DNA of 64,000 bases from an uncultured archaeon (lineage in GTDB: Archaea > Asgardarchaeota > Thorarchaeia > Thorarchaeales > Thorarchaeaceae), in contig CAZLEV010000006.1 in the NCBI GenBank assembly GCA_964558645.1, positions 1-64,000 of the forward strand. Direction: 5' to 3'. Shown here piece by piece: positions 13,845-64,000 of the stretch. Within the stretch, counting starts at the first letter, position 1; each line of letters starts with the position of its first letter. The notes below the pieces were generated by a model. It worked only from the letters and a program-made list of their open reading frames with translations. It made no database searches and was not told the DNA's origin. The position numbers were made by a program, and so were the translations under genes.

Positions 13845-13952
13845 GCCTCGGTGGCTAAGCGGTCTACAGCGTCTGCCTCGTAAGCAGAAAAACAGAGGGT
13901 TGATTACCAATCTCTGGTCGACTCGCGGGTTCAAATCCCGCCCGGGGCTCCA
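13845..13952 (+). tRNA. tRNA-Thr(CGT) with a ~31-nt insertion in the variable region
   Basis: GCCTCGG/CCGGGGC acceptor, TCTGC-CTCGTAA-GCAGA anticodon arm, GCGGG-TTCAAAT-CCCGC T arm, CCA; TATA-like TTTTATAA at ~13809. Confidence 0.85.
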
Positions 13953-55508: not shown

Positions 55509-55677
55509 CACTAAACAGACGGCCGTTTGTTCATCTTTCGCCTGTCTGTGGGAGAAACATGATTCCCACAGAATGCGCAAAAGAGATATGCATGAGGGGA
55601 CACACTGCCACAACTCTCAAATACCCAAGAGCGACCTAGAAACTGCTGACGCACTATCTAACAGTGGGGATTCACGG

Positions 55678-55968
55678 TTGATTAGCCAAGAGCGACTTGA
55701 TGCAATTCTAGCAGATCTTACAGCCCAGGAGGGCGTTAGAGGAGTCGTAGTCACAACCATGGAAGGTCTACCATTGAGCAGTGATCTTCCACCTGAAACC
55801 ACTGAAGCCGTCGCTGCAATACTGACCTCTCTGGTAGGTAAGGCACTTGATGCAGTTCGAGAGCTTAAGGAGGGGTCTTTGTCGTTCCTGACCCTCGATA
55901 CAACCGAGGGACAGATAAACATCGCACCGGATGTTAAGGAGGGCCTCATATTAGTAGTCCTCAAATAG
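55678..55968 (+). CDS. Roadblock/LC7 domain protein
   Basis: GVRGVVVTTMEGLPLSS..AVAA. Confidence 0.9.
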   Translation: MISQERLDAILADLTAQEGVRGVVVTTMEGLPLSSDLPPETTEAVAAILTSLVGKALDAVRELKEGSLSFLTLDTTEGQINIAPDVKEGLILVVLK

Positions 55969-55993
55969 GAAGGTATCCAAGAGGTACACCATC

Positions 55994-56461
55994 ATGAGCG
56001 ATCCGAAAGCCTTTGACAAGATACTCACGGAGATTATTCGGCAAGATAAGGGAATCAAGAAAGTGATTCTTGTCGATAAGACTGGGCTGACAATAGCCAA
56101 TGTGAGCAAGTTGAGTTACTACCCTGTGGATGTGGACAGTATCGGTGCAATTGCGAGTGCCGTGTTTTGTGCTAGTGAAGAACAGGGTAAGAACCTGCAA
56201 ATAGGAGAGCTTGAGATTGTGACATCCGAGTTCTCGGAGGGGAAGATTTTCGCCTCGGCCTGTGGTAAGGGAGTTCTCTGTGTGGTATCAGAGGCAGAGG
56301 TCAATATCGGCCTCATTCGTCTGGTAATGAAGAAACAGGGTAAGCAACTGGCAGACGAACTGGACAAGTTCCTCGCAGTGGAACCAATGGCACCCAGCAA
56401 GGATCGCGAGCTTGACGAGGAAGACCTCAAGTCCGCCTTGGCCGAACTCGAGAGAGTTTAG
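55994..56461 (+). CDS. Roadblock/LC7 (MglB-like) protein with acidic C-terminal helix
   Basis: VILVDKTGLTIA, IGAIAS, NIGLIRL. Confidence 0.9.
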   Translation: MSDPKAFDKILTEIIRQDKGIKKVILVDKTGLTIANVSKLSYYPVDVDSIGAIASAVFCASEEQGKNLQIGELEIVTSEFSEGKIFASACGKGVLCVVSEAEVNIGLIRLVMKKQGKQLADELDKFLAVEPMAPSKDRELDEEDLKSALAELERV

Positions 56462-56730
56462 GTTCACATGTTCATGTCCGTGATCACTGGTACTCCCTTG
56501 ATATGTGGACCCCCAGTTCCAAAACCGGGAAAGGTCTTCCAAGCAGGGGTTGATTTCTTGGCGGGCCACACGACGGACAAAGGCTTTTATGAGACTAAAC
56601 TTCTATCACCTTCAACCTCCCGAGGCTAGGCCCGAAACTCGTGAGGATACTCTGACCTTTGTGGGTCGCCCCTGATGCAATTGCATCCGGCAAGTTGGAT
56701 CCTCTGGGTCTCATCGAACACGGGTAAGCA

Positions 56731-57315
56731 GTGAATCTACGAGGTGTTCCAGTGAGAAAGGACGACAAAGGGCGAATACATCTGAAGCTGGTATTCTATG
56801 GTCCAAGCTTAGGTGGAAAGACGACCGCTCTTCGCTGGCTTTATGGAAAAGTGGAAGGTTTACAGAAAGGAGAGTTCACTGCGATCGAGGATGAAACAAA
56901 CCGAACTCTGTTCTTCGACTATGTGCCAATGAGTGCAGGAGGGCGGGTCTTATTCGACGTTTTCACTGTTGCTGGTCAGAAACGGCACAGGCATCAACGA
57001 AAGGTGGTTTTACAGGGTACCGACGGAATTCTGTTTGTTGCAGACTCTTCACCCGATCAACGTGATGAGAATACGGAGAGTTTCGAAGAACTCAAGCTCT
57101 TTCTAGGGGATGCCTTGGGCCGGGAGATTCCCATTGTTGTGATGTTGAACAAACGAGACCTTCCCAACCGCATGTCGCGTGATGAGATGCTCGATCTACT
57201 GGGTCTGGGAGGCAATGTGCCCATTTATGAAACGATTGCTATCCAAGGCGTAGGAGTTAAGAGAGCATTTCAGGCTATAGCACGAGAAGTAATCCTCAAA
57301 AGGATGTACAAGTAG
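56731..57315 (+). CDS. MglA-type small GTPase
   Basis: G1 GPSLGGKTT, RTLFFD, G3 TVAGQ, G4 NKRD. Confidence 0.92.
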   Translation: MNLRGVPVRKDDKGRIHLKLVFYGPSLGGKTTALRWLYGKVEGLQKGEFTAIEDETNRTLFFDYVPMSAGGRVLFDVFTVAGQKRHRHQRKVVLQGTDGILFVADSSPDQRDENTESFEELKLFLGDALGREIPIVVMLNKRDLPNRMSRDEMLDLLGLGGNVPIYETIAIQGVGVKRAFQAIAREVILKRMYK

Positions 57316-57331
57316 AGCCAGGTGAACTGAT

Positions 57332-57703
57332 ATGAGTGAATCCCGTGGAGAAACCCTCGAAGGTGTTCTAAATGAGCTACAGGGTAGTATCCCTGAGATT
57401 GAGGCCTGTGCCATTGTTAGTGTAGAGGGGTTGCCAATCGTGTCAGCCCTGCCCGCAGATGTTGATGAGGCAAAATTAGCTGCGATAACGGCTGCGATGC
57501 TAACTCTTGGTGAGAAGGCTGCAGTTGAACTAGGAAAGGGTGAGCTCGAACAGGTCAATGTAAAGGGCAGGGAAGGGTGGGTTCTTGTCATTCAGGCGGG
57601 TATGAACGCCTGTCTTACAGTTTCAACAACAGGCACCGCCAAACTTGGTCTTGTATTTCTTGATATGAAACGAGCAGCAGAGAAAGTCGCGATGATGATA
57701 TAG
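57332..57703 (+). CDS. Roadblock/LC7 domain protein
   Basis: AIVSVEGLPIVSAL, LAAITAAML.LGE, AKLGLVFLDM. Confidence 0.92.
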   Translation: MSESRGETLEGVLNELQGSIPEIEACAIVSVEGLPIVSALPADVDEAKLAAITAAMLTLGEKAAVELGKGELEQVNVKGREGWVLVIQAGMNACLTVSTTGTAKLGLVFLDMKRAAEKVAMMI

Positions 57704-62197: not shown

Positions 62198-63202
62198 TTG
62201 CCATTTGATATCATAAGAGAAGGAGAAGAGATTCTAGAGCTGAAGGAAGATCAGCTGGAATCGACAATGCATTCTGCATTCCAAATGAGAAGAGAGAGGT
62301 TTGGTTCAACTCTCTATTGTTATGGTCCAACAAGCTACCCTTATAGTATCAACGAACACATACAGGCGAACAAACACAATTTTCCTTCGTTAAGCGTGAC
62401 CGGCACAAGCTGTGCACTAAGGTGCGAGCATTGTGATGGGCGATTATTGAAAGGGATGAATGCAGCGTTATCTCCCGAGGAAATGCTGGTTCGATTCTCA
62501 GAGATAGTTGAAAGTGGTGGCAGAGGTGCTCTTGTCAGTGGTGGCTCCGATATGCGGGGAAGAGTGCCTCTTGGGCGGTTTAGAGATGCTATTGCTCGGG
62601 GCAAAGAGATGGGACTGGAAATCGTGGTTCACACTGGAATAGTTGATGAGCCCACAGCTGAGATGCTTTCGGCTGCATCAGTAGACGCAGTGATGCTCGA
62701 CATCATTGGTGATTCCAAAGTCATGGCAAAGGTGTATCACTTGAGGGACGGAAGGGAGGCCATGAATAGAAGTCTTGAGATCCTCCAAGCCCATGGTCTT
62801 CCTACAGTGCCACACATACTGGTAGGCTTAGACTATGGTGAACTGAGTGGTGAACTTATCGCCATTGACATGGTGTCTAGATACGATGTTGCGGGTCTTG
62901 TCATCATCGCTCTCAGTCCTCTTCGTGGCACCTCCATGGAGGGGGTGACCCCTCCCACTCCTAAAACAATCGGGCGTATATTGACCATTGCACGCTTTGG
63001 ACTACCTGAAACACCCATTTTACTTGGTTGTGCACGTCCAATCGGCCAACACAAGATCCTCACCGACAAATATGCTATTGATTCGGGAGTGAATGGAATC
63101 GCCTATATTAGTCAGGAAGGAGTCGACTATGCCAAGGAGCAATCACTGGAACCGGTCTTTCAGGATATATGTTGTAGTCTTGCATTTCAGAATTACGAGT
63201 AG
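62198..63202 (+). CDS. Radical SAM protein, LipS1-like (COG1856)
   Basis: SVTG..CALRCEHC, LGCARP, C-terminal CC. Confidence 0.75.
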   Translation: MPFDIIREGEEILELKEDQLESTMHSAFQMRRERFGSTLYCYGPTSYPYSINEHIQANKHNFPSLSVTGTSCALRCEHCDGRLLKGMNAALSPEEMLVRFSEIVESGGRGALVSGGSDMRGRVPLGRFRDAIARGKEMGLEIVVHTGIVDEPTAEMLSAASVDAVMLDIIGDSKVMAKVYHLRDGREAMNRSLEILQAHGLPTVPHILVGLDYGELSGELIAIDMVSRYDVAGLVIIALSPLRGTSMEGVTPPTPKTIGRILTIARFGLPETPILLGCARPIGQHKILTDKYAIDSGVNGIAYISQEGVDYAKEQSLEPVFQDICCSLAFQNYE

Positions 63203-63741
63203 AAGTGTTTCATCGATCGCCCTGCGAGCTCATAACCCAAATCAAAGGCCCATAGCCCGACCGCTGAGAGCAGAAAGTCAGGCCAGACAAGAGGTAGGAG
63301 TATAGCGGAAACCTTCAATGTGAACCTGTACTCAAAGAACAGTGATAAGACTGACTGATTGCGTCCATTTGCCCAGTTGTTTCCCAGTTCATCCAATACC
63401 GAAGCCAAGAAGAGTATGACAAGTGATGTCAACCATTGGCAAGACTCGGTGACAGGAGGAACGCCAAGCAGCACTAACGTGAGAAACATCACAACGAAGC
63501 CTATTCCAAACTGGGGGCGATTGACTTTTCCAGAGGCAAGAACTCCAAGGATGATTGAAACCATCAAGACCATGTCCCACTCAGATGTGCTCATTAAGAA
63601 GCCAAAGAGGAATCCGGAGATTCCAAGTGGAAACCACGCAAAATCAGATCTGTTAGCCTCATCCAGGAAATCATCCCCTATCTTGAGAGTGAGTCCTGCA
63701 AGACAGTATGCCAAGAGCACGAACAATACTTCTAACATCAA
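63193..63741 (-). CDS. Hypothetical integral membrane protein
   Basis: Several TM helices; K..DD and LDE motifs. Confidence 0.7.
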   Translation of the reverse strand: MMLEVLFVLLAYCLAGLTLKIGDDFLDEANRSDFAWFPLGISGFLFGFLMSTSEWDMVLMVSIILGVLASGKVNRPQFGIGFVVMFLTLVLLGVPPVTESCQWLTSLVILFLASVLDELGNNWANGRNQSVLSLFFEYRFTLKVSAILLPLVWPDFLLSAVGLWAFDLGYELAGRSMKHFYS

Positions 63742-63768: not shown

Positions 63769-63839
63769 TGGCTCCTCGGCTTAACTATGATTCGTCCTTG
63801 GGATAAACCCTCAGATAGCCAACATCGTCATCGGAGCCA
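63769..63839 (-). ncRNA. Box C/D 2'-O-methylation guide sRNA
   Basis: Minus strand: TGGCTCC-G-ATGACGA(C)-TGTTGGCTAT-CTGA(D')-GGGTTTATCCCA-AGGACGA(C')-ATCATAGTTAAG-CCGA(D)-GGAGCCA; 7-bp terminal stem. Confidence 0.78.
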
Positions 63840-63882
63840 ACACTAGGTAATGATAGCATTCTGATAAAACTTGACACACGTA

Positions 63883-63999
63883 CTATTGGAGTGTGACCGC
63901 AGTCCCTATTGCTTGCCCTGGGAGGTTCGTCCTGAATTTGGCTCTTACTGCACCACTGTTACCGTGGGGTCCCAAGATCTTGCCCAAGAATTCACGGCC
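63883..63999 (-). CDS. rpl35ae: 50S ribosomal protein L35Ae (eL33), 5' part outside the window
   Basis: [27 protein letters not shown]. Confidence 0.93.
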
Positions 64000-64000
64000 G

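Follow-up and report, generated by a model that had tools for sequence, protein, structure and literature searches.

On the minus strand of the 64,000-nt stretch of Thorarchaeia DNA analyzed here (the window), a 71-nt box C/D sRNA gene was found running from position 63839 to 63769, where a previous sequence-only reading had placed one. Sequence comparisons indicate that the element is real and probably functional as a box C/D guide RNA with a lineage-specific second guide. It is highly probable that its D guide directs methylation of the E. coli A1913 equivalent in the large subunit (LSU) rRNA, with the D' guide acting as a tethered anchor and C1934 methylation being possible. The features are as follows:

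63769..63839, minus strand: box C/D sRNA gene, 71 nt (layout, conservation, stem covariation)
63833..63839, minus strand: terminal stem (7 bp), 5' arm TGGCTCC (compensatory changes among relatives)
63825..63831, minus strand: box C, ATGACGA (ATGATGA or GTGATGA in many relatives; sequence and relatives)
63815..63824, minus strand: D' guide TGTTGGCTAT, 10 nt (7 Watson-Crick bp to LSU 1931-1937)
63811..63814, minus strand: box D', CTGA (sequence and relatives)
63800..63810, minus strand: internal hairpin GGG-TTTAT-CCC (two-sided changes in 2/4 pairs)
63792..63798, minus strand: box C', AGGACGA (sequence and relatives)
63780..63791, minus strand: D guide ATCATAGTTAAG, 12 nt (9 bp to the helix 69 loop)
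63776..63779, minus strand: box D, CCGA (most relatives have CTGA; covariation with box C position 5)
63769..63775, minus strand: terminal stem, 3' arm GGAGCCA (two-sided changes among relatives)
63862..63874, minus strand: candidate archaeal promoter, TCAAG then TTTTATCA (about 30 nt 5' of the stem; putative function)
63883..64000, minus strand: 3' end of rpl35ae (eL33), which extends past the window (L35Ae PF01247, E 1.7e-22)

Boxes C, D', C' and D occur in this order with guides of 10-12 nt, as expected of an archaeal box C/D guide sRNA, and kink-turn geometry (stem, 3-nt bulge, tandem GA/AG) could be read from the letters at both motifs. Judged by sequence and covariation, the GGG-TTTAT-CCC hairpin is the canonical stem of the internal kink-turn. 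All parts of the design described previously, i.e., the C/D layout, the 10- and 12-nt guides, the hairpin and the 7-bp stem, were recovered. Three of the boxes are non-consensus, deviating by 1-2 nt. The element had no Rfam family match at the cut-off or by E-value, and no splice-site (BHB) frame was evident by eye at the sRNA.

The proposed location downstream of rpl35ae was also borne out, with the identity of that gene resting on its PF01247 match and its stop codon lying 43 nt ahead of the sRNA stem. In a congener and further members of the family, the L35Ae protein bears the name Candidatus Thorarchaeota, which places the host among the Thorarchaeia. The presence of a TATA-like TTTAT[CG] motif at -28 to -30 in 15/20 family genomes suggests that the sRNA has a promoter of its own; the promoter scan used was of the sigma-70 type and is uninformative for archaea. 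A hydrophobic 182-aa ORF (window 63193-63741, minus strand), which lacks a Pfam match, begins 27 nt past the sRNA and is also found 3' of it in many Thorarchaeia, and the two may be co-transcribed. Elsewhere in the window, two tRNA genes (1671-1776 and 13845-13949) carry insertions of approximately 33 nt that are likely introns, and a cluster of roadblock-like ORFs with a small GTPase, named by eye, lies at 55573-57703. Such clusters are typical of Asgard genomes.

Twenty family genomes retain the sRNA behind rpl35ae, in flanking sequence that diverges. In these, the D guide core TCATAGTTA was invariant (20/20), 94.9% of the stem cells were paired as compared with 30-52% in slid controls, and two-sided changes were seen in 5/10 stem pairs, the genomes being kin and not independent. 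The terminal pair formed by box C position 5 and box D position 2 was U.U in 14/20 and C.C in 4/20. The comparison of related genomes suggested earlier as a check therefore found conserved boxes and covarying stems. In one genome (G008) the sRNA is gone from behind rpl35ae and is present, boxes intact, at C120:7334-7392 (locus L015), which is a case of sRNA gene mobility inside the Thorarchaeia family. This copy has the guide TCATGG and a near-full D' match. Apart from the window element, no C/D architecture in the host genome matched helices 69-71 over 9 bp, and three shuffled genomes gave none at all. That the element is a chance match, or a leader or terminator structure of the adjoining genes, is a reading that would fit the lack of an Rfam match at cut-off, but it is effectively refuted by the conservation and covariation, by the movement of the intact boxes to other gene contexts in G008 and other families, and by a design near-identical to that of an expressed Ignicoccus sRNA. 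Separately, a second likely host box C/D sRNA with consensus C and D boxes and a 6-bp stem was noted on the minus strand of G000:C12 near 21369; its 9-bp match lies at LSU nt 2689, which by offset is close to the A-loop.

The host 23S gene lies on contig C15, where helix 69 reads GGGAC-UAACUAUGA-GUCUC. The D guide forms nine contiguous Watson-Crick pairs with its loop (guide positions +3 to +11, LSU 2046-2054), and this loop was the best site for the guide in the host 16S and 23S. Within UAAC, the second A (host LSU nt 2048) is Watson-Crick paired with position +5 of the guide; it is the equivalent of E. coli A1913, a nucleotide located at intersubunit bridge B2a. The host's own 23S thereby upholds the A1913 equivalent as the D target, and the helix 69 complementarity on which that earlier proposal hinged is present over 9 bp. 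The 12-nt complementarity claimed at the same time did not survive, as the 12-nt complement was the guide's own reverse complement. The host duplex is AU-rich and starts at +3 rather than +2; in relatives it spans 9-11 bp, and a G1910C change in Thorarchaeia rRNA is matched by a C-to-G change at guide position +2 in most genomes. Duplexes of 9-10 bp were methylated in vitro, while one of 8 bp was not (PMC7229835). The earlier statement that the A1913 equivalent is 2'-O-methylated in yeast agrees with the literature, in which Am2256, guided by snR63, is confirmed (PMC5699541). Our literature searches returned no report on archaea that mentions "Am1913" and none on Asgard rRNA modification. As a side observation on the host rRNA genes, the 16S gene (L002:1501-3778; G000:C10:124412-126689) measures 2278 bp against a 1478-position model, implying an insertion of approximately 800 nt, probably one or more introns.

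The distribution of the RNA across Asgard archaea was surveyed by pattern and model searches in which the D guide was counted inside complete C/D RNAs. It was found in most of the Asgard families searched, including the Hodarchaeales-type family f22 (21/21), Heimdallarchaeaceae f5 (27/28), Jord/Freyarchaeia f19 (6/6), Sif/Borrarchaeum f16 (5/5), and the families f17 (5/5) and f7 (4/5), as well as in Atabeyarchaeia, Baldrarchaeia, many Lokiarchaeia and others. Weak model matches in f3, f12, f14 and f26 were left out, so that for these families the RNA was not found in the genomes searched, which does not mean that it is absent. Guide and target change together: a UAUAA loop is accompanied by the guide TTATAG (Loki f9, Sif/Borr f16, Atabey f13) and a UGUGA loop by TCACAG (f4, f20), the exceptions being f7, which keeps one mismatch, and f19, which has a G.U pair. 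The sRNA lies just 3' of rpl35ae in Thorarchaeia, f2, Sif/Borr, Atabey, f4, f10 and f18, and elsewhere in other families; this common position supports orthology of the copies. AMMECR1-like, ThiI-like and DNA ligase genes, named by eye, also recur near the sRNA at Asgard and crenarchaeal loci (L099, L140, L153-L157, L160, L162), hinting at an old gene neighborhood.

The D' guide is more variable. In most Asgard copies it is aimed at G1945 (yeast Gm2288), with Loki D' guides following a downstream G-to-U change in the rRNA, whereas in Heimdallarchaeaceae it is aimed at G1940 and in the Thorarchaeia order, including the sister family f2, at C1934. All of these variants place one GGC core on neighboring GCC triplets. 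A Heimdallarchaeota-labeled family, f27 (L175-L177, L182, L184, L068), keeps the G1945 D' guide and carries TGCTTGGCTAG in an enlarged D'-C' loop; the loop stretch TTGGCTA is the complement of LSU 1931-1937, to which the Thorarchaeia D' guide binds, and eukaryotic snoRNAs have extra base-pairing elements of a similar kind.

Counterparts exist outside the Asgard archaea. Ignicoccus hospitalis sR91, detected by RNA-seq, is listed with A2179 and G2211 as predicted targets (PMC4644070), and in the alignment of that study A2178 corresponds to E. coli A1912, so that A2179 is A1913. It shares with the window element a D guide for A1913 that is likewise separated from box D by two bases, an internal hairpin and a D' guide aimed just downstream, and its design is near-identical to that of most Asgard copies. 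The predicted D' target of sR91 is G1945, unlike the Thorarchaeia RNA, which is directed to C1934 through a shorter duplex, has C.C-type boxes and has only the GGC core in common with the sR91-type D' guide. The window element nevertheless shares the two other marks of a TACK-Asgard sR91-type family, namely an A1913 guide at box D and a position beside rpl35ae, a gene that the Ignisphaera aggregans copy adjoins tail to tail. Sulfolobus acidocaldarius sR113 has the same D guide and box D (TCAGAGTTACT CTGA; PMC4644070 supplement) but is shorter, with a k-loop type interior, and inspection by eye showed no evident match of its D' spacer to helices 70-71. The dual A1913 and G1945 pattern was found in 10/301 genomes of a second phylum, presumably Thermoproteota, sR91 and the Ignisphaera copy being among the hits. 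This is an undercount given that a G1945 guide was required and sR113 would be missed; earlier patterns left out the crenarchaeal guide form TCAGAG and are uninformative on most TACK genomes. With this D guide present in sR91 and sR113 (PMC4644070), the predicted modification extends beyond Asgard archaea and eukaryotes, contrary to what had been implied.

Box D spacing and the Watson-Crick pair at +5 are invariant in the Asgard and crenarchaeal copies, a sign that the methylation register of the RNA is under selection. The same invariance counts against an RNA that in the Thorarchaeia host is mainly a non-methylating folding chaperone for helices 69-71, a role which the non-consensus boxes (G at position L3 of C', C.C in the terminal motif) and the short, AU-rich duplexes would suit but which we consider improbable.

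For the D' guide, the target of which had previously been left open, pairing with the host 23S led us to assign the C1934 region. The guide forms seven Watson-Crick pairs with UAGCCAA (LSU 1931-1937), 21 nt downstream of the D site, and its position +5 is Watson-Crick paired with host LSU nt 2069, the C1934 equivalent. The guide matches LSU 969 and positions 7-14 of tRNA-Ser/Leu equally well, over 7 bp. A guide acting on C11 of these tRNAs (AUAGCCAAG, positions 7-15) instead of on rRNA would have 7 bp plus a Watson-Crick pair at +1 in tRNA-Ser(GGA) and tRNA-Leu(CAA), to which three relatives add a pair at +9. We regard this as unlikely: position +1 has no part in binding (PMC7229835), a 5-7 bp duplex makes most sense if the D guide tethers D', the guides of G015 and of the g12 genomes fit the rRNA better, and the orthologues aim at helices 70-71. 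The rRNA site is preferred because the match to 1931-1940 is complete (10 bp) in the relative G015, because three g12 genomes pair an A1937U change in the rRNA with an A at guide position +8, because of the aim of the orthologues, and because dual targets close together (within 100 nt) are common in archaea (PMC4644070, PMC6009581).

Whether D' also methylates this site is a further question. An RNA making both Am1913 and Cm1934 in this organism is possible, if doubtful. Such a dual role would accord with the +5 pair, the consensus D' box, the 10-bp duplex of G015 and Methanopyrus kandleri sR43, the D' guide of which is predicted for alignment C2200, equal to C1934; however, the D guide of sR43 is directed to G2173 (G1907) and not to A1913, and its D' aim probably arose independently of the Thorarchaeia copy. 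Against it, the D' duplex is 7 bp in the host (5-10 bp among relatives), several relatives combine 5-6 bp with degenerate D' boxes, and even 8 bp was inactive in vitro (PMC7229835). In yeast, m5C2278 (1935) is listed and 2277 (C1934) is without ribose methylation (PMC5699541). Only GGCTA is well conserved in the D' guide among relatives, and compensation at +8 is inconsistent, the A being found too in genomes without A1937U and the A1937U change of g9 being uncompensated; for these reasons anchoring is likelier than dependable methylation, and the D' guide is probably more an anchor than a methylation guide. In yeast, extra pairing near a target increases methylation (PMC3116282). Neither a separate G1945 guide nor one for G1940 was recovered by a strict scan of the host. 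Contig C27 shares a 15-mer that lacks boxes and was rejected as a chance match.

Under this anchored-guide model, transcription from the sRNA's own promoter would yield a box C/D sRNA of approximately 71 nt, on which L7Ae would bind both kink-turns (C/D and C'/D') and recruit Nop5 and fibrillarin. The host genome encodes fibrillarin, Nop5 and two L7Ae-family matches, among which L7Ae and L30e were not told apart. With the D guide paired to the helix 69 loop of pre-23S rRNA, fibrillarin would 2'-O-methylate the A1913 equivalent. Pairing 21 nt downstream, in the helix 70 region (1931-1937/40), the short D' guide would serve as a tethered second anchor that aids guide loading and local folding, and it may also methylate C1934 if the duplex is as long as 9-10 bp.

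In eukaryotes, A1913 is likewise the target of snR63/SNORD46 (U46; yeast Am2256, human A3739), Giardia GlsR7, plant snoR442 and nucleomorph GtNM-R8, and SNORD46, GlsR7, snoR442 and GtNM-R8 also share the box D geometry UCAUAGUUA-NN-CUGA. The window element thus addresses, through box D, the same nucleotide as the SNORD46/snR63 family, although it had no Rfam match to RF00218 and its kin, the gathering threshold not being reached; other Asgard copies scored 12-15 bits against a cut-off of 40, a score driven by the guide. SNORD46 differs in being longer (104 model positions), and yeast, unlike the archaeal dual guide, has a separate RNA, snR75, for G1945 (Gm2288). The 5' spacer of the Rfam SNORD46 consensus contains CCUUAGG, a potential pairing partner of the CUUAAGG immediately 3' of helix 69, at a position analogous to that of the archaeal D' guide. 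Because the guide occurs in most of the Asgard families searched, including Hodarchaeales, its continuity between Asgard archaea and eukaryotes is parsimonious. The letters common to the Asgard and eukaryotic guides are those forced by target and box, and homology and convergence have been found not to be separable in such cases (PMC3511168). Tentatively, and somewhat short of probable, one guide may have been inherited vertically from a TACK-Asgard ancestor and kept in Hodarchaeales, with snR63/SNORD46 descending from it and the G1945 task passing to snR75. The ancestral guide would then, with the same reserve, have addressed A1913 at D and G1945 at D' from beside rpl35ae, the Thorarchaeia RNA being a variant. 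If true, an individual snoRNA family could be followed from archaea into eukaryotes; for no family did Hoeppner and Poole (2012) manage to establish this (PMC3511168).

This class of sRNA is well known, and as a single gene the element is ordinary. Archaeal C/D guides are reported to turn over fast, however, with a target rarely kept beyond genus or order (PMC6009581), and a guide present in most Asgard families and some crenarchaea, with a common gene position, is an exception. The reuse of a single GGC core on three neighboring GCC triplets offers a simple route of guide drift. Taken together, the retention of the guide suggests that the predicted Am1913 is an old modification under selection that the archaeal relatives of eukaryotes already had; for cultured Asgard archaea and for Sulfolobales this makes a concrete prediction.
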